Of a stretch of DNA of 64,000 nt, positions 2,398 to 40,948 are shown in pieces (the first letter of the stretch is position 1; the number at the start of each line of letters is the position of its first letter). The DNA is from Candidatus Saccharimonadia bacterium (GTDB lineage: Bacteria; Patescibacteriota; Saccharimonadia; UBA4664). The notes beneath the pieces were generated by a model, which saw only the letters and a program-made list of their open reading frames with translations, was not told the DNA's origin and ran no database searches. The stretch spans positions 99,483-163,482 of the forward strand of contig DATKIP010000012.1 of the NCBI GenBank assembly GCA_035544015.1. Direction: 5' to 3'. A program made the position numbers and the translations under genes.

Positions 2398-3795
2398 ATG
2401 AAGCTCTTGCGCCGCTATCCAGAAATCATCATCCTCGCCACAGCAGCGCTCATTACCAGACTCTGGGATGTTTTTGCTCCCGCCGCCGTAGTCTTCGACG
2501 AAGTTTACTTTAAAGTCTATGCCGGCGATTACCTCACTGGCTCATATTACTTCGACCCCCATCCCCCACTGGGCAAATTGCTGCTAGGCGGCTGGGCCTG
2601 GCTCGCGCACCTCAACCCCACCATGCTCACCGGCAACGACCCGGCCGTGGCCTTGCGCGTACTGCCCGCCATCGCGGGCGCGCTCATCATCCCCGTGTTC
2701 TATCTCTTTCTCCGGCAATTACGTGCCTCCCGACGAGTCGCCGCCCTCGGCGCGGCGCTCTTGCTCCTCGACAACGCTCTGCTCGTGGAATCACGCTTCA
2801 TCCTCATCGACAGCCTGCTCATTCTCTTTGGCCTCACCGCCGTCACCTGCTTCCTGGCCGCCCGCCACCGCTCCGGCCGCCGGCGGTTGCTCCTACTCAG
2901 CGCCGCCGCTGCCTGTGGCGGCCTCGCCGCCAGCACCAAATGGACCGGCCTCGCCGCCCTGGGCCTCATTGGCGTCATTTGGCTCACCGACCACCTCCGG
3001 CACCATCAGTATTTCTCGTGGACCAAACGTCTCATCGAGGCCCTCATACTGGCAATCGTGCCAGCAATCGTTTACCTCAGTGTCTTTGCCATCCACTTTA
3101 GCCTGCTACCCAAAACCGGCCAGGGCGATGCGTTCATGCCGCAACGCTTCCAATCCACGCTCATTGGCAATCCCAACTACAACCCCACGGTTCACCTCAG
3201 CTTCGTCGAGAAATTTATCGATCTCAACAATGCCATGAGCCAATCCGAGGAAGGCCTCAAAACCGCTACCCACCCGTACGGCTCCAAGTGGACCAGCTGG
3301 CCGCTCATGATCCGTCCAGTCTACTACTGGCAGGGCCAAACCCAACCCGACGGCACCCAAGGCAACATCTATCTCCTCGGCAATCCCGCCGTTTGGTACG
3401 GCCTGCTCATCGTCATTGTCGCCGGAATGCTAGCCTCAGCCGGCGCCCTCGCCCGCTTGCGGCCCTACCGTTTCGCGCTCGGCTTCCTGGCGCTTGGCTA
3501 CCTCATGAACTTCCTACCCTTTAGCCGCATCGTCCGCGTAATGTTCTTGTACCACTACTTTTTTGCCCTCATCTATAGCCTGGCCTTCGCCGTCATTCTG
3601 CTCGGCGCGCTGGCCGATTGGATGCACGACCGCCCCCACCCCTGGCAATTTTCGACCCCCACCTCAAAGTACCTCTACATCGGCGTACTCATCCTCGCCG
3701 TCATCGGATTCATCTACTTCGCCCCACTCAGCTACGGCATCCCGCTCACGCCCGCCGAAATCGCCCAGCACATGTGGCTTACGACTTGGCGCTAG
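2398..3795 (+). CDS. PMT-family (GT39) protein O-mannosyltransferase-like membrane glycosyltransferase
   Basis: VVFDEVYF DE-motif loop near the N-terminus and multi-TM GT-C architecture. Confidence 0.8.
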   Translation: MKLLRRYPEIIILATAALITRLWDVFAPAAVVFDEVYFKVYAGDYLTGSYYFDPHPPLGKLLLGGWAWLAHLNPTMLTGNDPAVALRVLPAIAGALIIPVFYLFLRQLRASRRVAALGAALLLLDNALLVESRFILIDSLLILFGLTAVTCFLAARHRSGRRRLLLLSAAAACGGLAASTKWTGLAALGLIGVIWLTDHLRHHQYFSWTKRLIEALILAIVPAIVYLSVFAIHFSLLPKTGQGDAFMPQRFQSTLIGNPNYNPTVHLSFVEKFIDLNNAMSQSEEGLKTATHPYGSKWTSWPLMIRPVYYWQGQTQPDGTQGNIYLLGNPAVWYGLLIVIVAGMLASAGALARLRPYRFALGFLALGYLMNFLPFSRIVRVMFLYHYFFALIYSLAFAVILLGALADWMHDRPHPWQFSTPTSKYLYIGVLILAVIGFIYFAPLSYGIPLTPAEIAQHMWLTTWR

Positions 3796-9791: not shown

Positions 9792-10601
9792 TTAATTTCG
9801 CCCCAGTTCCTGCAGCCACGCCAGCCCACCATACAAACCAGCCTCATCGCCCAAACTCGCCCGCTCCAGCCGCGGCCACCGTTCAAACACCAACGGGAAT
9901 TTCGCCAGCTCCCGGGCCACTACCTTCAGATCAATATCGCGCATCATGCTACCCCCCAGCACCACTACCGCAGGATTCCAATACAACACGGTGTTGTACA
10001 ATCCCGCCGCCAAACACCGTTCAATCTCCTGCCACACCGCCGGATCCCGCACCTCGCGCGGGGGCTTACCCCATCGCTCTTCCAGCGCACCCCCACCAAT
10101 CATCGCCTCCAGCGACTTCCAACCAGCGCCGTCGCGCAGCAGAAGCTGCTTGCCCAGCTCATACCGAGCCACGCCACGGTCCACCGCACCGTCCACCAAC
10201 CGCACAGCATTCACACCCGTACTCACCGTGTAATACGCCATTACGCCCTGGCGGCTCCCGGCCCCGTGTGCAGCCTCACCCCGGCCGCACAACACGACGT
10301 CGTTCTCCCAGTACACCGGGCACTCAAATCGATCCCGAATCTCCGCTCCCAGCCGCTTGCCAATCCATTTCGGAAGATTTGGCGCCGCCATCACCACCCC
10401 GGCGTCGTCCAACTGCCCCGGAAATCCGCCGGCCACCGCGGTCAGCCCCTGGCTACCCGCTAGCTTCGCCGCCGCCGCCAAAAACCGCGTGAGCCCTTGC
10501 TCACCCCGCTCTGTAGGCAACCGAACCACCTCACCCAGCACGCCGCCCTCGGCCAACGCCAGCCGCGTGTTCGTACCACCAATATCAAATACCAACACCA
10601 T
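9792..10601 (-). CDS. ROK-family sugar kinase (glucokinase-like)
   Basis: N-terminal VLVFDIGGTNTRLAL ATPase motif and ROK-type glycine-rich region. The start overlaps the GH13 stop by 1 nt. Confidence 0.75.
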   Translation of the reverse strand: MVLVFDIGGTNTRLALAEGGVLGEVVRLPTERGEQGLTRFLAAAAKLAGSQGLTAVAGGFPGQLDDAGVVMAAPNLPKWIGKRLGAEIRDRFECPVYWENDVVLCGRGEAAHGAGSRQGVMAYYTVSTGVNAVRLVDGAVDRGVARYELGKQLLLRDGAGWKSLEAMIGGGALEERWGKPPREVRDPAVWQEIERCLAAGLYNTVLYWNPAVVVLGGSMMRDIDLKVVARELAKFPLVFERWPRLERASLGDEAGLYGGLAWLQELGRN

Positions 10602-12238
10602 TACACGCCTCCCCGTATCAGTTCATATACCCTACCCTCGTACGGCTCCAAAGCCAACTCCCCCGCATGTCCCGGCTGTCCATCGCCCTCCACCACCACC
10701 GTCCCCGCCACCCACGCTCCCACGCGCCCATGCAACATCGCCGTCGCCGGCTGCGCGTCAAAGTTAAGCATCACCAAAAACCGCTGTTGCTCCGTCTCAC
10801 GCACAAAGGCATAAACCCGCTCGTTGCCCGTCTCAATCGAACGATAATCACCCTCTACCAGAGCCGGTGATTGCGCCCGCAAATGAATTAAATGTCGATA
10901 TAAATTCAACGATGAATCCGGATCCCGCTCCTCTGTAGCCACATTGAGCTTGGATGAGGCCGGCCCCAGAGGCAACCATGGCGTACCCGTTGTAAATCCA
11001 CCACCAGTTTCATTATTCCACGGCAGAGGGGTGCGCTCGGGATCACGCCCAAGTCCCCGGCCCGGCACATTGCGCTCCCACGGATCGCGTACGTCTTCGG
11101 GCGTAACCGGCGTATCGGGCAAGCCCAGTTCCTCGCCGTAATACACCACCGGCAATCCTCGCAGTGTCAGTTGCAGCATCGCGAGCAACCGTGCGCGCCC
11201 CGCCCCCATCCGCGACACCAGTCTATGCCGATCGTGATTCCCCAGCACATAATTCGGCCAATCATCCGGCCCCAACGAACCCTCGTATTCATCAATAAAT
11301 TCCCGAAATACCTTCGCGCTCCAATCCAACGCCATCAGGTTAAAGTTAAACGGCGCGTGCACCGGATGCCGCTGACACGCCTCATACATCTTGTGGAGCC
11401 CCGGAATATTGAGGTACGCCTCACTGAGCAAAAACTTCGATTCCTTCTCGGCCAGCACGTCACAAAACGACCCAATCACACCGCCCAGCTCCGGCTGAGC
11501 CGCGCTATTCACCCGCAAAAACTCATCCGCCGGATCCGATACCCCCGGCTTATACGTGGGGTTCGGGAGATCATCCCGCAGCCGCACATCTTTGATCAGA
11601 CCCAAAGCCGCATCCGTCCGAAACCCGTCTACCCCTTTATCGAGCCAAAATCTCAATACAGCGAGCATCGCCTTGCGCACCTTTGGATTGTGCCAATTCA
11701 AATCCGGCTGTTCCTGCAAAAACGTGTGCAGGTAATACTGTCCGGTCGCTTCATCGAGCGTCCAGGCCGAACCCCCGAAGTAACTCAACCAGTTGTTGGG
11801 CGCACCCCCATCTTCTCCCGGCTTGGACCACACATACCAGTCGCGCTTAGGATTATCGCGGCTAGAACGCGACTGAATAAACCATCTATGCAGCACCGAA
11901 GTATGGTTCGGCACGTAATCCATCAGCAGCTTTATGCCCCGATGGTGCAGTTTTTTCAACAACTCTTCAAAATCAGCCATCGTCCCAAAACGTGGATCAA
12001 TCGCCTGGTGATCAGCCACGTCGTAGCCCCAATCAGCCATTGGCGACAGGTACACCGGCGACAACCACACCGCCGTCACCCCCAGCGAATCCGACTCGCC
12101 GTTGTTGAGATAATCCAAATGATCAATAATCCCCCGCAAATCACCATATCCATCACCATTAGAATCCGCAAAACTCAACGGATAAATATGATAGAGGGTA
12201 GCTCGGCGATACCAGGGGTCAGTCGGCGTAGGTTCCAT
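10601..12238 (-). CDS. GH13 alpha-glucosidase / trehalose-synthase-like glycoside hydrolase
   Basis: YHIYPLSFADSNGDGYGDLRGI, DYVPNHTS and GFRTDA GH13 catalytic regions. Confidence 0.85.
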   Translation of the reverse strand: MEPTPTDPWYRRATLYHIYPLSFADSNGDGYGDLRGIIDHLDYLNNGESDSLGVTAVWLSPVYLSPMADWGYDVADHQAIDPRFGTMADFEELLKKLHHRGIKLLMDYVPNHTSVLHRWFIQSRSSRDNPKRDWYVWSKPGEDGGAPNNWLSYFGGSAWTLDEATGQYYLHTFLQEQPDLNWHNPKVRKAMLAVLRFWLDKGVDGFRTDAALGLIKDVRLRDDLPNPTYKPGVSDPADEFLRVNSAAQPELGGVIGSFCDVLAEKESKFLLSEAYLNIPGLHKMYEACQRHPVHAPFNFNLMALDWSAKVFREFIDEYEGSLGPDDWPNYVLGNHDRHRLVSRMGAGRARLLAMLQLTLRGLPVVYYGEELGLPDTPVTPEDVRDPWERNVPGRGLGRDPERTPLPWNNETGGGFTTGTPWLPLGPASSKLNVATEERDPDSSLNLYRHLIHLRAQSPALVEGDYRSIETGNERVYAFVRETEQQRFLVMLNFDAQPATAMLHGRVGAWVAGTVVVEGDGQPGHAGELALEPYEGRVYELIRGGV

Positions 12239-14860: not shown

Positions 14861-16342
<1,482 letters not shown>

Positions 16343-17473: not shown

Positions 17474-17857
17474 TCACACCCGCGCGTCCAAACAAGCATC
17501 AGGATGCGCGCTCAGCAGCACGGCGTCAGAAGTCAAAAGTATCAACTGCTCCTGGCCGGCCTGAACCAACAATAGGCGATCAAACGGATCACCATGGGGC
17601 AACTCCACCCCACCGACCCCATCCACATGCTCCCAGGCAACCGGCAGCTCCTTGAATCCGGTAGCTGCCAACGCAGCCAAAAATCCCTTCGGCAAGGTCA
17701 ATTTACCTTTCGCCGCCTTGATCCGCACTTCCCAAACGCTCGCGGCCGACACGTAGGTAGCCTCGGCCTGCTTGAGCGACATCCGCGCACCCACACCCAG
17801 CAAAGGCGAATCCAATACGGCCCACAACACCGCATTCGTATCGAGCAGTAGCCTCAC
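17474..17857 (-). CDS. vapC: type II toxin VapC (PIN domain)
   Basis: LLDTNAVLW N-terminal PIN acidic motif. 4-nt overlap with the upstream antitoxin. Confidence 0.8.
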   Translation of the reverse strand: MRLLLDTNAVLWAVLDSPLLGVGARMSLKQAEATYVSAASVWEVRIKAAKGKLTLPKGFLAALAATGFKELPVAWEHVDGVGGVELPHGDPFDRLLLVQAGQEQLILLTSDAVLLSAHPDACLDARV

Positions 17858-18099
17858 GCCTCACCCTCAAACATCCGGATAAGCTCCTCATCCGGCTCGT
17901 CAAAATTATCCGACACCGAAAATTTTCCCTTCAACAAGCCAAAGACAATTTTCGGCTTGTCCGATTCAAACGGTACCAAGCGCGCAATCGGCTGCCCATA
18001 TTTCCCGATCACCACCTCTTTGCCCTCCGCCGCCTCCTGCAAATATTTCGACAGCTGCGTCTTGGCCTCATGTATGTTCACGACTTTCATTGCTCGCAC
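17854..18099 (-). CDS. type II antitoxin Phd/YefM family
   Basis: KVVNIHEAKTQLSKYL...VVIGKYGQPIARLVP Phd/YefM fold. Precedes and overlaps vapC. Confidence 0.8.
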   Translation of the reverse strand: MRAMKVVNIHEAKTQLSKYLQEAAEGKEVVIGKYGQPIARLVPFESDKPKIVFGLLKGKFSVSDNFDEPDEELIRMFEGEA

Positions 18100-18844: not shown

Positions 18845-19120
18845 ATGAATACCGTATTGCTCAGCATCAAAATCGACTCCGAGACGAAAGAGCAGCTCAA
18901 GTCTTTCGCCGCAGAGCTTGGCGTATCGAGCACGGCCCTCGTAAACATGGTCGTCAAACAGGCGATCCGTGACCGCCGCGTCGTGCTTAGCGCCCCGCTA
19001 GAGCCTACCCCCTACCTCGAAAAGATCATGCGCGAAGCTAACGCCGACATAAAAGCCGGTCGAAACATGGTGGGGCCGTTTAGCAGCGCCGAGGATATGA
19101 TCGCATCGCTTGAGAGCTAA
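18845..19120 (+). CDS. RelB/DinJ-family antitoxin (orphan; no cognate toxin ORF downstream)
   Basis: Ribbon-helix-helix N-terminus and DinJ-like sequence (IKIDSETKEQLKSFAAELGVSSTALVNMVVKQAI). Confidence 0.7.
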   Translation: MNTVLLSIKIDSETKEQLKSFAAELGVSSTALVNMVVKQAIRDRRVVLSAPLEPTPYLEKIMREANADIKAGRNMVGPFSSAEDMIASLES

Positions 19121-19338: not shown

Positions 19339-20163
19339 ATGCAAAAGAACCCCGTAGTCAGCTACTACCACACGTTTGAGTCAAGGCTTGGATACAGATT
19401 ATTGGGTGGGGTCAAACACTTTGGCTACTACCCAATAGGCCAAGAAGACCTCCCGACCCTCAAAGCGCAAGAGCTTATGGACGAGCCATTAGCTCAAACA
19501 CTGGCGTTGTCTGACGGAGCAAAGGTGCTTGATGCTGGCTGCGAAGAGGGTGGTGTAGCCCTCTATCTAGCAAAGCACCATCACCTAAATGTAACCGGCA
19601 TTGATTTGCTCGACTTCAACATAGCCAGGGCAAGGAAGCGGGCGGCTAAAGACGAGCTGGAAACCAAAGTCGAGTTTCTTAAAGCCGATTATTCAAATAC
19701 CACCCTACCCGATTCCTCATTTGACGCCATCTATACAATGGAAACCCTCGTACACTCCCCCGATTACACCAAAACCCTTAAGGAGTTTCATCGCTTACTA
19801 AAACCCGGCGGCAAACTAGTGCACTTCGAGTACTCGATGGCAGACAAAATGCCTCAGGATGCCAAGCAAGCACTAACACGGGTTAATAAATTAGCAGCCA
19901 TGCCAGCTTTTGACCAATTCACTCACGGAACGCTTGAAAGCGCCTTGGCAAAAGAGGGCTTCAAAGAAGTAGAATCACGCGACATCACAGAGCGCATGTT
20001 GCCGTTACTGCAAAAGTTCGAAAGAAAGGCCCGACTCCCCTACCAAATCGCCCGATGGCTTAAGCAAGAAAACCATTTTGCAAATGCAATGTCTGCGGTT
20101 GAGATTTACAGACACATTAAGTATTTCAGATACAACATTATCTCAGCAGTCTTACCAAAATAG
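19339..20163 (+). CDS. class I SAM-dependent methyltransferase
   Basis: VLDAGCEEGGVALYLA motif I. Lower GC than the surroundings. Confidence 0.75.
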   Translation: MQKNPVVSYYHTFESRLGYRLLGGVKHFGYYPIGQEDLPTLKAQELMDEPLAQTLALSDGAKVLDAGCEEGGVALYLAKHHHLNVTGIDLLDFNIARARKRAAKDELETKVEFLKADYSNTTLPDSSFDAIYTMETLVHSPDYTKTLKEFHRLLKPGGKLVHFEYSMADKMPQDAKQALTRVNKLAAMPAFDQFTHGTLESALAKEGFKEVESRDITERMLPLLQKFERKARLPYQIARWLKQENHFANAMSAVEIYRHIKYFRYNIISAVLPK

Positions 20164-20231
20164 CGACGTTATTGGCCCTAACAAGCTATTCATCAAACAA
20201 AAAAGCACCTGATTTGAGGTCAGATGCCCTT

Positions 20232-20250
20232 TTGGTGGAGCTGCGGGGAA
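20232..20250. repeat. 19-bp direct repeat identical to the 3' end of the tmRNA gene (displaced att-like copy)
   Basis: TTGGTGGAGCTGCGGGGAA at 20232-20250 is identical to 21069-21087 (the ssrA 3' terminus). Confidence 0.65.
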
Positions 20251-20390
20251 AATCTTGGCACTTGATCATGGAGATGCCGCAGCGTGGCGGTACGCACTGG
20301 GGCCGAAGTTTGAACGATTCAAGTTCACCCACCAAAGATTGCTGTGATAAAAACAGCGAATATTGAGGAATATGCTGCCAAATCTAGTCC

Positions 20391-21007
20391 CTAAGCGACA
20401 AGAAGTCTGGCTGCCTTCTCTATGGAAGCATGGAAGTTACCCGACTCTATCTCAATAACCGGAAAGCCATATTTTCGCGCCTCGTCTGCGTAGAACTTGT
20501 TCCATAGCTGATTGAATGAGGCATAGAGTCGAATTGTTTCTTCATCATATTTGCGAAGCCAGTCATTTGGATTTTTACGAGCATGAGCAAGAATATCTTC
20601 AGTCTGATCAGCAAGGTTAGCAATAAACACCGACTTAAACTCAAAATCTACCTTGGAGAGCTGCTCTGGCAGTATGGCAACCCCTTCTACAATCGCATCC
20701 TTTCCGTCGCGCTGATAATAACCAACGAAATCGAGTACCGACTTCCAGGTTTCTTCGGCTTCTCCCAGCTCATGACCTAGTGCGGCCTGCGGATTATTCT
20801 TTAAGGCGTCGATGTGCTTTTCTGAGCCAAATGCACCACGCTGCACTTTATGAAGATGGGATTTATTTCAGGTGTTGATACGCCTCTCGCAACGGCCCTA
20901 ATTGCATCCGTTGATGCAGCGAGCATTGGCCTCTCTCTCAAGAGAGCATGGATAATCGTAGTCTTGCCCGTTCGGGGAGCACCGCCAATAAAATAAATCT
21001 GTGACAT
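20391..21007 (-). pseudogene. frameshifted P-loop NTPase/kinase pseudogene
   Basis: The Walker A fragment (GGAPRTGKTT, 20801-21007) and the C-terminal 151-aa fragment (20391-20846) are on the same strand in different frames, with the frameshift near 20850-20870. Confidence 0.6.
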
Positions 21008-21069
21008 GCCTTAACAATAACAGATTACAAAAAGAGCCAAGAAACTTGACTCTTTAAGCATAAGAACAT

Positions 21070-21447
21070 TGGTGGAGCTGCGGGGAATCGCACCCCGGTC
21101 CGTCGGGTTACTCGCTCGCGATCTACAGGCTTAGTTTGCTTACATGTCTTAGCCCTCCACCTGTGAGCAAACCAAACGGTGGCGGGAGCAGCTTCAAAGC
21201 TTAGCTGAGGGGCAGAAGCCCAACCCTCAGAGCGTCCCGATGATTTGATACCGGCGAACCCCTACCGGGAATCAGGTGCCGATAGCTTACGTTATTAGGC
21301 GTAAGCGGGGGCGAATGAAGGAGCCTGGAAGGCAGCCTTCACCCGCGCGAAAAAGTTGGCAGTTAAGCTAACTTGTGGAAGCTAACGTTTGCCTACGACC
21401 TGCGCGCATAGCTTGTAAAAGTCCCAACGTCGAGCCTGATCAGCCCC
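21070..21447 (-). ncRNA. ssrA: tmRNA (SsrA)
   Basis: The minus strand reads 5'-GGGGCTGATCAGGCTCGACG... with tRNA-like ends (T-arm GGGG-TGCGATT-CCCC, acceptor ...GCAGCTCCACCA-3'). Candidate tag ORF GCA AAC GTT AGC TTC CAC AAG TTA GCT TAA (ANVSFHKLA*). Confidence 0.8.
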
Positions 21448-35979: not shown

Positions 35980-36028
35980 AATCTGTTGTCGCTATTGTAC
36001 ACCGCGCGCTAAAAATAATGGCATTGCC

Positions 36029-36373
36029 AGACTAGTCATAAGCCGGATTCTGTCGAGGATGATCATCTATCTTGGGTCCACGTTGCCGCGAACCTCATGC
36101 GGTCTGATCGCTCAAACGCGCGAGCAGCGCCCCTTTCGGGATGTTTGAGCCGCCTTGCAGCGGACGGGGTTTACCTCCTCGCCTAGTCACCTAGGCCAGC
36201 TGTGCGCTCTTGCCGCACTCGTTTCACCCTTACCGAGCTTGCGCCCGGCGGTATCGTTTCTGTGGCACTTTCCCTACGGTCGCCCGCGGTTGCCGTTAGC
36301 AACCGTCCTGCTCTATGCTGTCCGGACTTTCCTCACCGACCTTGCAGCCGGCGCGATCATCTTCTAGTCTGAC
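36029..36373 (-). ncRNA. rnpB: RNase P RNA (bacterial type A)
   Basis: The minus strand carries GAGGAAAGTCCGGAC (P4 5' strand), GGTAAGGGTGAAACGAGTGCGGCAAGAGCGCACAG (P10-12 region) and ACAGAATCCGGCTTATGACTAGTCT (P4 3' strand/P1). Confidence 0.8.
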
Positions 36374-36379
36374 CTTCAG

Positions 36380-36408
36380 ATTATGACAGATTACGCTCAA
36401 AAATTCAA
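36380..36408 (-). promoter_or_regulatory. candidate rnpB promoter (TTGAAT-17-CATAAT on the minus strand)
   Basis: Hexamers with 17-nt spacing immediately upstream of the predicted rnpB 5' end. Confidence 0.4.
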
Positions 36409-36501
36409 ATTAAATTTTCACTATTGATGTATCAAATACAACACAGATCAGCCAGTAGCAGCAAAGTAATCAAAATCGGCGCGGCCATCGACCTACCAGC
36501 T

Positions 36502-37065
36502 TCATTCCGACATCCTAGCCAACGCCTCCCTGACGCTGACATCAAAGTCCTTAACATATTCATAGCCCTTGAGTGCTTCGGGATTGATCCAAGCAAAATC
36601 GGTGTGCTCCCAATCCAAGGTAATAGCCGGTTTTTGACGCAACATTACCAATACCGGGTATACCACCCATGTCCGGCCGATGCCCTGGTCATCAACTTCA
36701 TACGGCCTGCAAACGCCCATGCTCGCAATGACGCGCTCATCAAAGGCCACCTCTTCCATGAGCTCCTGTTTAGCAAACTCCTCAATCGATTTTGGCTCAT
36801 CGATAAACCCAGAAATTCCATTCCACAGGCCCCGGTAGGTGCCTACTTTCTGGCTACGTTTTACGATAAGAATTTTTCCCTCATAATAAACAACCACATT
36901 CAACACTGGCGCTTTGCGCGCACCAGTGAAGTCGATCCGGCCGTCATCAAAACGAGGCAATCCACGAGGAAGCTCAAGCCGAATACACCCATCCGGGCTG
37001 CCACTTCCAGGGTTCCGATATGATATCCTCAAGCTTCTTACCCAGCAAATGTTCTTCAAACCCAT
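36502..37065 (-). CDS. NUDIX hydrolase (true start probably internal; the ORF as drawn overlaps the upstream gene by ~90 nt)
   Basis: Nudix box GFIDEPKSIEEFAKQELMEEVA. Confidence 0.7.
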   Translation of the reverse strand: MGLKNICWVRSLRISYRNPGSGSPDGCIRLELPRGLPRFDDGRIDFTGARKAPVLNVVVYYEGKILIVKRSQKVGTYRGLWNGISGFIDEPKSIEEFAKQELMEEVAFDERVIASMGVCRPYEVDDQGIGRTWVVYPVLVMLRQKPAITLDWEHTDFAWINPEALKGYEYVKDFDVSVREALARMSE

Positions 37066-37504
37066 ACTGGGTCGCCCGATGACCTATAATCACAACGGTC
37101 TTATTTTGATACGACACCCTGAGATCTTCCAGAAACTTAGCCACCCGCCTAGAAGTCTGTTCGTAGCTCTCGCCATCAGGGAACGGCTTGCTAATGTGCT
37201 CGGCTTTTTTTGCCTCAACCTCACTTTTAGGAGCTTGGGTCAGCTTCCCGTAACCACATTCGCGCAATCTCGAATCAATGAATATCGGAACCAGCCTATC
37301 CTTGAAAGCAATTGCAGCCGTCTTATAGCTTCGCTGCAAATCCGAGCAAAATACCGCATCGGGCAAACGGTCCTTATACCGGGTTCCCAGCTCAGAAGAT
37401 TGACGCAATCCGGCTTCCGAGAGATCGACATCATTCCACCCCGACGAAAGCTCAGCTTCGTTGTCCAACGAGGTCGAATGAGCCTCGAAAATAATGGTTA
37501 CCAT
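36974..37504 (-). CDS. histidine phosphatase superfamily (phosphoglycerate-mutase-like) protein
   Basis: N-terminal catalytic His context (IIFEAHSTS) and second motif VVIIGHRATQ. The first Arg of the RHG motif is substituted. Confidence 0.6.
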   Translation of the reverse strand: MVTIIFEAHSTSLDNEAELSSGWNDVDLSEAGLRQSSELGTRYKDRLPDAVFCSDLQRSYKTAAIAFKDRLVPIFIDSRLRECGYGKLTQAPKSEVEAKKAEHISKPFPDGESYEQTSRRVAKFLEDLRVSYQNKTVVIIGHRATQYGFEEHLLGKKLEDIISEPWKWQPGWVYSA

Positions 37505-37682
37505 AGAGTAAGTCTAGCAGACAAAAAATAATTCCTGGTCAACCATACGCCTCACCTTAGCGAACTATTCCGGCAAATCCTCAAAACGACCATCACCGTT
37601 TGAGTCTCTTCAAACTTGGTTGGCAGAAGCTGGCCTTCAAATTCAAAATTACTGAGTCTTGTCATGCAGCCAGTATAGCAAC

Positions 37683-37705
37683 AAAAGGAGACCGCTTGGG
37701 TCTCC
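37683..37705 (-). terminator. Rho-independent terminator downstream of tRNA-Pro
   Basis: GGAGACC-GCTTG-GGTCTCC hairpin followed on the minus strand by TTTTGTTG. Confidence 0.45.
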
Positions 37706-37723
37706 TTTCAAGCATAAGTACAT

Positions 37724-37799
37724 TGGTCGGGGTGACAGGGCTCGAACCTGCGACCTCACGGCCCCCAGCCGTACGCGCTACCAACTGCGCCACACCCCG
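37724..37799 (-). tRNA. tRNA-Pro (GGG), CCA encoded
   Basis: The minus strand CGGGGTGTGGCGCAGTTGGTAGCGCGTACGGCTGGGGGCCGTGAGGTCGCAGGTTCGAGCCCTGTCACCCCGACCA gives a cloverleaf with a CTGGGGG anticodon loop. Confidence 0.85.
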
Positions 37800-37804
37800 A
37801 TAAT

Positions 37805-38041
37805 TTACAATCTCTGGTCGAGCCACTTGCGACCGGCACCCGACTTGAGAAAATGCTCCCTCTTCATGGCTTCGGTTCTGGTTGGCAAAACCTCCGTATA
37901 CTCTACCCTAAAAGGAGCAATCGATCGAGTTGATTTAGTGATGCCGGAATTATGTTGCTCAAAACGGAGCTCAAAATCCTGTGTCTGGCCCGTATATCGG
38001 CGCCCGTTCTTTTCGCTCCGCAACACATATATGGTATACAA
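37805..38041 (-). CDS. small GIY-YIG nuclease-family protein (YhbQ/URI-like)
   Basis: YTIYVLRSEKNGRRYTGQT GIY-YIG motif. Sits 5 nt upstream of tRNA-Pro and 8 nt downstream of the tRNA half-copy. Confidence 0.75.
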   Translation of the reverse strand: MYTIYVLRSEKNGRRYTGQTQDFELRFEQHNSGITKSTRSIAPFRVEYTEVLPTRTEAMKREHFLKSGAGRKWLDQRL

Positions 38042-38049
38042 TCCTAACT

Positions 38050-38103
38050 CCTCACGGCCCCCAGCGTCGCCACGGCGACCGCTACCAACTGCGCCACACC
38101 CCG
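38050..38103 (-). repeat. degenerate copy of the tRNA-Pro 5' half (acceptor, D-arm and anticodon arm; no T-arm)
   Basis: TCGGGGTGTGGCGCAGTTGGTAGCG and GCTGGGGGCCGTGAGG are identical to the intact gene. The intervening CGTACG is replaced by the 14-nt palindrome GTCGCCGTGGCGAC. Confidence 0.6.
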
Positions 38104-39842: not shown

Positions 39843-40948
39843 TAGCCCTCTCAAAACAAAACCGTCATAAACCATATTTAAACAGCCTTCCGGCAATATA
39901 GCCGGTAAAGGCCTTTTTTGTGTCTTCAAAGGTAGAACGCTGAATATTGGCTACAGCTTGCTTGGTGGTGTTCCAAACATGCTCAATTGGATTGTTGTCA
40001 GGGGCATAGGGCGGCATGGGGATGAGGTGGACCCGCTCCAAGAGTTGGCCTTTGGCTAAGGCTGTTCGAATCGCACGACCTTTGTGGAAGGCGGCATTGT
40101 CCCAGATAATGGCAATCTTCTTGTCTGGGTGGTTTTTCAAGAAGAGCTCGAATGCCTTCAACACCTCTTCCTGGTTTTGCCAGGGCATTTCATACACTTC
40201 GCAGGTGAACGATTTCTGGTTCAAGAACCCGATATAGCTCTGAGCCTCTTTGTCCCGGTCGACTTTGACAATGGTGCGCTTGCCCTTTTTGAGCCAAGCC
40301 CGGCGGGTAATAGCTTCTTGTTCTATCCGGACTTCGTCAACGGCAAACACTTCCCACTCCTTGCTGGTAAGCAGCGGGGCAACTTCAGCATGGATTTCTC
40401 GCATCCGGGCCTCAATCGTAGCCACATTGCGCCTGAGGTCAAAGGTATCCGGGTACTTAAACGACAGATTACTAAACCGTAGGAGGAAATGATATGACTG
40501 CGGAGATTCATACACAATCTCAAACTTGGTCTGGAGGTAGGTTTTGAGCTGGGGTACATCCCAGAAGGCCTGAGGCAAGCCAAAGTCGGAGGGTGGAGAG
40601 CTGAGCGCCTGCTTGACCTCTTGGCGCTGGTCGCGGGTTAGAGGACTGGCGTTGTCATTGCCGGCGTGGCCGGTGAATATCATGCTGAGGCGACTAGTTC
40701 GCCAGGCATTGAGCCAGCTCCCCACGGTTCGTGAGGAGCGGTCTTGGATGTCGCCAATGTCAGCGGATGACATCCCTTTATTCGCCATGAGTACGGCCCC
40801 AGCTTTATATCGTATGAGGATGAGTGGGGAGGTTTTGGCATATTCCTTTAAAAGAATCTTTTCTTCGTTGGTGATATTTGTTTTACGCATTTGCAATTAA
40901 GCGTAACAAAATCTCGAAATAAATGCAGGTTTTGTTTTGAGGGGGCTA
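39843..40948 (-). mobile_element. IS630-family (Tc1/mariner-like) insertion sequence, 1106 bp, with a TA target-site duplication
   Basis: 21-bp terminal inverted repeats TAGCCCTCTCAAAACAAAACC (left) and TAGCCCCCTCAAAACAAAACC (right, reverse complement), 20/21 identical. Flanking TA at 39841-42 and 40949-50. One transposase ORF. Confidence 0.85.
39865..40896 (-). CDS. IS630-family DDE transposase (HTH plus DDE_3)
   Basis: IAIIWDNAAFHKG and PPYAPDNNPIEHVW DDE motifs. Full length, 343 aa. Confidence 0.85.
   Translation of the reverse strand: MQMRKTNITNEEKILLKEYAKTSPLILIRYKAGAVLMANKGMSSADIGDIQDRSSRTVGSWLNAWRTSRLSMIFTGHAGNDNASPLTRDQRQEVKQALSSPPSDFGLPQAFWDVPQLKTYLQTKFEIVYESPQSYHFLLRFSNLSFKYPDTFDLRRNVATIEARMREIHAEVAPLLTSKEWEVFAVDEVRIEQEAITRRAWLKKGKRTIVKVDRDKEAQSYIGFLNQKSFTCEVYEMPWQNQEEVLKAFELFLKNHPDKKIAIIWDNAAFHKGRAIRTALAKGQLLERVHLIPMPPYAPDNNPIEHVWNTTKQAVANIQRSTFEDTKKAFTGYIAGRLFKYGL

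Follow-up and report, generated by a model that had tools for sequence, protein, structure and literature searches.

Why should the 3' end of a transfer-messenger RNA (tmRNA) gene, ssrA, be found a second time a short way downstream of that gene? The question is raised by a 64-kb stretch of DNA (the window, to which coordinates refer unless a comparison locus is named) from a metagenome-assembled genome of Candidatus Saccharimonadia (TM7), in the Candidate Phyla Radiation (CPR). The two copies, of 19 bp each, enclose an islet of 818 bp with a single gene, which codes for a kinase. The original prediction took this block for an integrase-bearing island that had decayed in place. We propose instead, with a probability of roughly 0.55, that a single-gene cassette without a recombinase of its own was moved in trans and integrated at the T-loop of ssrA, in front of an older, decayed serine-recombinase island, as a tandem accretion. 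The comparison loci that were fetched are labeled by L-numbers (L001, L011, L160 and so on), L160 being the genome of L011.

The repeat and the insertion at the 3' end of ssrA

The ssrA gene (21070-21447, minus strand) is intact. It was found by ARAGORN, scored 100.5 bits against Rfam RF00023 over the full model (positions 1-374) and encodes the tag peptide ANFFARVKAAFQAPSFAPAYA. The sequence TTGGTGGAGCTGCGGGGAA occurs in two exact copies in the window, both on the minus strand: a proximal, attL-like core (21069-21087), made up of the last 18 nt of ssrA plus 1 nt, and a distal, attR-like core (20232-20250) 837 bp downstream of the ssrA end. Read in the sense of ssrA, the 19-mer covers the last two bases of the T-loop, the 3' strand of the T-stem, the acceptor strand, the discriminator, CCA and the first trailer base; 18 of its 19 nt are thus the mature 3' end of tmRNA. 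The insert begins 1 nt past CCA, and the tmRNA gene stays full-length. As the repeat begins in the T-loop, its position is a classical integration sublocation. No further copy of the 19-mer was found in the window even with 3 mismatches, nor was a third same-orientation copy down to 8 nt or any degenerate further copy of the ssrA end. When 3 mismatches are allowed, about 0.09 chance matches are expected for such a 19-mer, and two copies arose in none of 100 shuffles. A Logan assembly of SRR8863102, which is possibly from the same sample and hence gives weak independent support, matches the 20.8 kb around the locus at 100% identity. L001, 100% identical and possibly of the same sample, was dropped as an independent confirmation. 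In an Actinomycetota metagenome-assembled genome (L048), the same 18-mer ends a tRNA-Ala gene (969-986) and recurs 2.6 kb downstream (3608-3625), probably as part of an unrelated island at tRNA-Ala.

The 18-nt ssrA end was scanned over species-representative genomes, which gave 120 loci, 47 of them from CPR. The tmRNA genes closest to that of the window were those of L011 (91%), L106 (90%), L056 (88%), L031 (79%) and L065 (69%). A hairpin trailer, CCACCA-AAAGGG...TTTTTTG, comes straight after the ssrA end in L011/L160, L056, L031 and L065. Its homology to window positions 20196-20231, which lie 3' of the distal repeat, is supported by compensatory stem changes. The direct junction in the relatives shows that the window carries an insertion delimited exactly by the 19-mer: judged by this alignment, the 818 bp between the repeats (20251-21068, minus strand), missing between the ssrA end and the trailer in these relatives, are an insertion relative to them. 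The original prediction holds in that the terminal 19 nt of ssrA recur as a direct repeat downstream, and the alignment that it proposed as a check found an uninterrupted site in related genomes. A 19-mer conserved at the same distance, as a regulatory element might be, was not seen in the relatives, which have the contiguous junction instead. Meanwhile, the kinase was a conserved neighbor of ssrA in 0 of the 47 sampled CPR ssrA loci.

The same topology as in the window was found in L096, where ssrA is followed by a 155-nt insert, a 23-nt repeat and a remnant of a recombinase tail. Gene-less inserts of about 150 nt with 19-23-nt repeats lie at the ssrA end in L022 (2957-3145) and L096 (7327-7517) and at the tRNA-His end in L129 (379-566). 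Within each of the three, at about 65-75 nt past the gene end, the 5' half of the T-arm of the cognate gene is present as an inverted copy. In L106 (1577-2773), the second-closest relative, ssrA is separated from a degenerate copy of its 3' end, 54 nt long, by just one gene, which codes for a 360-aa Fic-domain protein, and there is no recombinase.

The kinase islet and the recombinase stub beyond it

All parts of the islet are read on the minus strand. The arm on the ssrA side (21028-21068) consists of a tRNA-type trailer, here called type H (ATGTTCTTATGCTT), followed by a terminator hairpin with a U-tract (fold -17.9 kcal/mol, z = -3.4). An extended -10-like element, TGTTATTGT, was read from the sequence at 21014-21022, 6 nt before the kinase ATG, and suggests a leaderless-type promoter. 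In total, 62 nt of trailer, terminator and promoter separate the ssrA end from the kinase ATG. The kinase gene itself (20391-21007) is followed by a distal arm (20251-20390), in which a terminator scan detected a weak terminator-like hairpin (20341-20357); the remaining ~90 nt had no match in the window or in the fetched loci. The kinase is the only gene of the islet. No recombinase was found inside it, and tblastn with two recombinases detected no recombinase-like residue there; the insert has no terminal inverted repeats. At the sequence level, attL- and attR-like repeats are kept while integration and transfer genes are missing. The exact attL junction had no match in viral contigs. The GC content of the islet is 45.8%, compared with 58.6% for the window and 47.5% for the methyltransferase gene beyond the distal repeat. 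The low-GC tract runs about 1.2 kb past the distal repeat, with the kinase region lowest; thus the repeat does not bound the low GC.

The layout TGnTAnnnT-N6-7-ATG (TGnTATGAT-like) stands upstream of kinase homologs at many loci. A TGnTATGAT-like element 6-7 nt before the start codon, right after the T-tract of a terminator, was also noted in L002, L006, L129, L135 and L141-L143, as at 21014-21022 of the window, and its recurrence suggests leaderless transcription of such accessory genes. The 18 nt after CCA (AATGTNCTTATGCTT) are 17/18 identical between ssrA (21052-21069) and tRNA-Pro(ggg) (37706-37723), at the same offset and with a terminator hairpin after each. This motif was found nowhere else in the window and in no ssrA trailer of a relative. 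Trailers of type H are also found after ordinary tRNA genes and, in L106, L162 and L164, after the distal repeat that was displaced. The ssrA trailer of L034 was rejected as a donor type, as its likeness is one of generic terminator composition only.

The kinase gene is split by one -1 frameshift into the open reading frames (ORFs) 20801-21007 and 20391-20846. When one base is restored in the C-run 20858-20860, a 206-aa protein results, and alignment with homologs places the frameshift between NP and HLHK. The window kinase retains 18 of the 18 family-invariant residues, so the gene is one mutation or one sequencing error from intact; the frameshift may be either. In all, 75 homologs were found, with identity up to 67%, the intact ones being 204-208 aa long. 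The window's kinase fragment shares 99% identity with an NCBI protein from a Candidatus Saccharimonadia metagenome-assembled genome. Among the named homologs, the family appears from its sequences to be confined to Saccharimonadia/Saccharibacteria. Matches to 2-phosphoglycerate kinase (NCBIfam NF003259, 32.1 bits against a cut-off of 343) and to Pfam AAA_33 were both below threshold, and the kinase profile found nothing meaningful among PDB sequences. An AlphaFold2 model (predicted local distance difference test score, pLDDT, 93) was matched by Foldseek with adenylate, UMP/CMP and dephospho-CoA kinases at template modeling (TM) scores of about 0.55-0.6. Going by the model, the identity of the protein is supported to the level of a P-loop, nucleoside monophosphate (NMP)-kinase fold only.

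Kinase homologs repeatedly adjoin tRNA genes. In L006, the kinase lies within an element at tRNA-Glu; the element also codes for a TraG-like protein, a Replic_Relax protein and an intact large serine recombinase of 570 aa, in which Resolvase, Recombinase and Zn_ribbon_recom domains were found. In L130, it is found at tRNA-Glu together with a recombinase C-terminal fragment and a GNAT gene. L135 (870-2780) holds tRNA-Asn plus three further copies of its 3' end with AGCATA(AG), four copies in all; the units of this array are a transglutaminase-like gene, the kinase (second) and 240 nt of non-coding DNA, and no recombinase is present. In L129, the kinase starts 62 nt past an exact 19-nt repeat of the tRNA-His end, a spacing as in the window. 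Thus repeats of the 3' end of the adjoining tRNA were present in L135 and L129. Upstream of the kinase, L131 and L141 have candidate partial tRNAs that Rfam does not support; these were not used.

Beyond the distal repeat, the plus strand carries the 3'-end stub of a large serine recombinase gene (20196-20249). Compared by tblastn and against the L011 tail ..TTKKAPLLSRDALMVELRG, the corresponding part of ORF 20172-20366 reads NKKAPDLRSDALLVELRG; it represents the last ~18 codons of the recombinase, with 87% DNA identity to L011 over 53 nt. The antisense of the stub is the trailer of the relatives, here called type E, with its terminator hairpin (20203-20235; fold -18.1 kcal/mol) and a U-tract next to it on the ssrA strand. 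L011 had been matched by tblastn with the L006 recombinase. It encodes a 522-aa large serine recombinase (Pfam Resolvase) directly downstream of ssrA on the opposite strand, and the recombinase ORF passes through the hairpin and stops within ssrA. Since the tail matches the L011 recombinase and tblastn with two recombinases found no other part of such an enzyme in the window, the hairpin at the distal repeat is, on this comparison, the stub of a lost recombinase gene.

The recombinase belongs to a family of ~520-aa proteins with 641 homologs at E <= 1e-10, six of which were examined in context. The ORF overlaps the 3' end of ssrA in L160, L162, L163, L164 and L166 (ORFs at about 10001-11570 in these five; tmRNA of L166 confirmed by Rfam) and that of tRNA-Gly in L165. 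The tail ..ISPLYRLAxNKKDLxxxRKSLLVELxG is conserved and coded antisense to a terminator hairpin plus the 3' end of the RNA gene. A homologous hairpin goes with the recombinase at tRNA-Gly as well as at ssrA, which indicates that the type-E trailer belongs to the recombinase gene. The idea that the distal hairpin is simply the ancestral ssrA terminator was dropped, because it is part of the recombinase 3' end and is also present at tRNA-Gly. At each of the five ssrA loci, the last 9-12 nt of the gene (GCTCCACCA) recur 3.2-5.5 kb downstream with another terminator after them; about 0.04 copies per locus are expected by chance. These five loci are genuine recombinase-bearing ssrA islands bounded by repeats and 3.2-5.5 kb long. 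Compared with the 9-nt cores of such islands, the distal copy in the window retains 10 further bases of ssrA (TTCCCCGCA..). These extra bases indicate that ssrA and an element once truly met here and that this junction was later split in the T-loop; the distal 19-mer is thus probably a displaced older 3' end of ssrA. Judging from the relatives, a large serine recombinase is the likelier enzyme than a tyrosine integrase, and none of 10 candidate window ORFs (247-427 aa) was a tyrosine integrase. A 346-aa ORF beside tRNA-Asp in L002 was rejected as an integrase, having no Pfam match and no recombinase motifs. One of the 10 candidates is an IS630-type transposase gene (Pfam DDE_3 with HTH_23) at 39865-40896 on the minus strand, about 2 kb from tRNA-Pro.

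In the sense of ssrA, the order of the locus is the ssrA body, the 19-mer, the type-H trailer with promoter, kinase and 140-nt arm, the second 19-mer, the recombinase stub, low-GC accessory genes (methyltransferase, RelB-like orphan, Phd/PIN pair) and guaB (14861-16333). The gene for a class I S-adenosylmethionine (SAM) methyltransferase (19339-20163, plus strand, Pfam) is convergent on the hairpin and lies outside the repeats; it is probably cargo or a replacement within the remnant of the older island. The loci of its homologs were checked for an islet-free counterpart of the window locus, and all contexts were unrelated, one of them in a high-GC organism. The variable stretch between guaB and the distal repeat holds a toxin-antitoxin pair of the PIN/Phd type and a RelB-like antitoxin without a partner (17474-18099 and 18845-19120), which are consistent with remnants of the older island.

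With tRNA-Pro on one side and the RNase P RNA gene (36023-36372) on the other, the only other low-GC tract of the window (36300-38000, 48-50%) holds two ORFs, 36502-37065 and 36974-37504. The 3' end of tRNA-Pro was not found repeated in this tract, and tRNA-Pro has no distal repeat. A partial pseudo-tRNA-Pro (38050-38103), about 280 bp upstream of the intact gene, consists of an exact 24-nt copy of the 5' end and a 16-nt piece of the anticodon arm and breaks off where the T-stem starts.

Taken as a whole, the features named in the original prediction were largely recovered. A frameshifted P-loop kinase gene is the only cargo between the repeats, although with its single -1 frameshift it is otherwise near-intact; homologs do occur as island cargo (L006, L130) and beside tRNA-end repeats (L135, L129); and the hairpin abutting the distal repeat folds stably next to a U-tract. 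Two statements were right in part. The block is lower in GC than the window, but the low GC does not stop at the distal repeat, and an integrase is indeed missing inside the islet, but ~18 codons of a recombinase remain just outside it.

Proposed history and competing explanations

According to the history that we favor, an older, L160-like island would have integrated first, so that ssrA was joined to its left end. The kinase unit would then have entered the segment between the T-loop and the 3' end of ssrA by site-specific recombination, bringing a 19-nt copy of the ssrA end, then a tRNA-type trailer with terminator of its own, and then the kinase gene behind an extended -10 promoter. By this event ssrA would have been left intact with a new terminator, and its former 3' end would have been displaced by 837 bp, still attached to ~18 recombinase codons. 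The hairpin in the stub could still terminate transcription, facing the convergent methyltransferase. The old recombinase gene would have been lost afterwards, and the kinase frameshift would have been acquired later, unless it is a sequencing error. As the islet has no recombinase of its own, mobilization in trans is most likely, in the manner of a cis-mobilizable element (CIME), by an ssrA-specific recombinase of a co-resident element.

Several points weigh against this history. No circular form and no empty site of the same species was seen. In the window, no far end of the supposed older island was detected, nor anything of its recombinase beyond the stub. The recombinase islands of the relatives have repeats of 9-12 nt and not of 19 nt, so the enzyme behind the window repeat may differ from theirs. 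Comparison of the loci also indicates that the presence of the same kinase unit beside different tRNA ends is not explained by one integrase of fixed specificity. Furthermore, the type-H trailer is of a generic host tRNA type and near-identical to the organism's own tRNA-Pro trailer, which hints that the kinase unit may have resided there for long or have arisen locally, and not be a fresh import.

In-place decay, in which a full integrase-bearing island between the repeats would have lost its integrase and all cargo but the kinase, is in our view unlikely. It would account for the att-like repeats and the frameshifted cargo gene, and such decay does occur elsewhere, as seen from the recombinase fragment beside the GNAT and kinase genes at tRNA-Glu in L130; the one-gene Fic islet of L106 with its degenerate 54-nt repeat speaks for it too. 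Yet in 7/7 cases, whether intact or partial, the recombinase gene immediately adjoins the end of the tRNA or tmRNA gene, whereas this position in the window is taken by the clean 62 nt of trailer, terminator and promoter, with no room or scar for a recombinase, and the near-intact kinase shows little sign of long decay. It is this clean arm together with the near-intact kinase that makes a cassette mobilized in trans preferable to in-place decay. Thus the att-like arrangement stands as an insertion at the ssrA 3' end with a repeat starting in the T-loop, but the decayed island that lost its integrase fits poorly, there being no scar inside the islet. The kinase unit found at the ends of ssrA (window), tRNA-Asn (L135) and tRNA-His (L129) leads to a different possibility, an integron-like cassette system at tRNA and tmRNA 3' ends in Saccharimonadia, which we hold to be improbable. 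Single-gene cassettes (tRNA-type trailer and terminator, leaderless-type promoter, one gene), bounded by copies of the RNA-gene 3' end, would there be inserted and stacked in trans by a large serine recombinase coded beside the RNA gene or elsewhere. The empty inserts of ~150 nt at ssrA (L022, L096) and tRNA-His (L129) would fit such a system.

A resident kinase would turn the order of events around. The type-H trailer would be native to ssrA, and the stub-bearing serine-recombinase element, with its own mimic of the ssrA end and the low-GC methyltransferase region as cargo, would have landed downstream, either in a secondary site or via a shared trailer through homologous recombination, and later lost its recombinase. 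In agreement with this, type H looks host-like, being found after ordinary tRNA genes and after the repeats displaced in L106, L162 and L164; the 17/18 identity of the ssrA and tRNA-Pro trailers and the low-GC tract extending past the distal repeat agree as well. We nevertheless give this order of events a small chance, since ssrA in the nearest relatives is in every case followed by the type-E trailer instead of type H and the kinase, and 0/47 of the sampled CPR ssrA loci have the kinase as a conserved neighbor. In addition, the distal copy contains 19 nt of ssrA compared with cores of 9-12 nt, and a junction at a secondary site should not hold the extra bases; the kinase region itself is lowest in GC. 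Finally, the repeat might be no scar of a mobile element at all: it might have arisen by chance, through target duplication by a transposon or as an artifact of assembly, or be a conserved element with a regulatory role. The 18-mer is highly conserved, is present in many genomes and also in tRNA-Ala genes, and the source is a metagenome-assembled genome. Such an origin is nonetheless very hard to credit, given the ~0.09 chance matches expected even at 3 mismatches and the contiguous junction of the relatives, which lack the 19-mer at that distance. A transposon with target duplication was rejected, as the insert has no terminal inverted repeats and 19 bp would be atypically long. The repeat also falls below the k-mer length of assemblies, and the sequence was identical in a second assembly.

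Known systems and meaning for Saccharimonadia

Insertion of an island at ssrA with a repeat of the gene end is textbook knowledge. The T-loop sublocation of integration sites in tRNA and tmRNA genes was reportedly described by Williams in 2002 in Nucleic Acids Research (30:866), in a classification that is said to have been built for tyrosine integrases. The window resembles it in the block of identity from the T-loop to the gene 3' end and in the gene being restored by the element, and differs in that the enzyme here is probably a serine recombinase. By its sequence features, the islet belongs to the tRNA/tmRNA-targeted kind of integrative island, but codes for no site-specific recombinase of its own.

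The closest parallel in layout comes from the ssrA islands of Dehalococcoides, which target the single-copy ssrA with a 20-bp repeat and T-loop insertion, form tandem islands of 10-30 kb, and carry a ~540-aa large serine recombinase, DsiB, on the reverse strand directly against attL; some islands without an integration module were proposed to be cis-mobilizable (McMurdie et al. 2011, PMC3146451). Likewise, the 19 bp of the window start at the last two T-loop bases, and the relatives L160-L166 repeat the island layout. Unlike those islands, the window islet has one gene in 0.8 kb, no integration module and a host in Saccharimonadia, and the recombinase islands of the relatives have repeats of 9-12 nt with a recombinase ORF ending inside ssrA. 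The recombinase module at attL is thus missing from the islet and present in L160, L162, L163, L164 and L166. The likeness of these recombinases to DsiB/CcrB is one of layout, the domains found here being Pfam Resolvase, Recombinase and Zn_ribbon_recom only.

CIMEs have been described as decay products of ICEs (integrative and conjugative elements) or IMEs (integrative and mobilizable elements) that undergo accretion at the 3' end of a target gene (Guedon et al. 2017, PMC5704250). The islet resembles them in its attL/attR-like repeats, its lack of integration and transfer genes and its tandem position with a decayed element. It differs in that nothing in it points to former ICE or IME genes: no remnant lies inside, the proximal arm is clean and its mobility is putative. 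In Prochlorococcus, tycheposons integrate one after another beside tRNA and tmRNA genes, so that older elements are moved outward and partial copies of tRNAs and broken integrases stay behind, a minority of tycheposons using large serine recombinases (Hackl et al., bioRxiv 10.1101/2020.12.28.424599). The parallel lies in a streamlined genome growing at tRNA/tmRNA genes by stacked integrations; tycheposons, however, have mostly tyrosine recombinases and replication modules, neither of which was seen at the window locus, and belong to another phylum.

The insertion itself adds little to what is known, beyond a concrete, clearly bounded case of gene gain in the ultra-small genome of a CPR bacterium. 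The relatives reveal an abundant family of large serine recombinases in Saccharimonadia, whose genes overlap the 3' end of ssrA or a tRNA gene and head repeat-bounded islands of 3-5 kb. The kinase family, with its NMP-kinase fold and its repeated neighbors coding for GNAT, nucleotidyltransferase and glyoxalase proteins, is perhaps worth a biochemical look. If one-gene units are indeed mobilized in trans, reduced genomes would be able to exchange accessory genes without full mobile elements.

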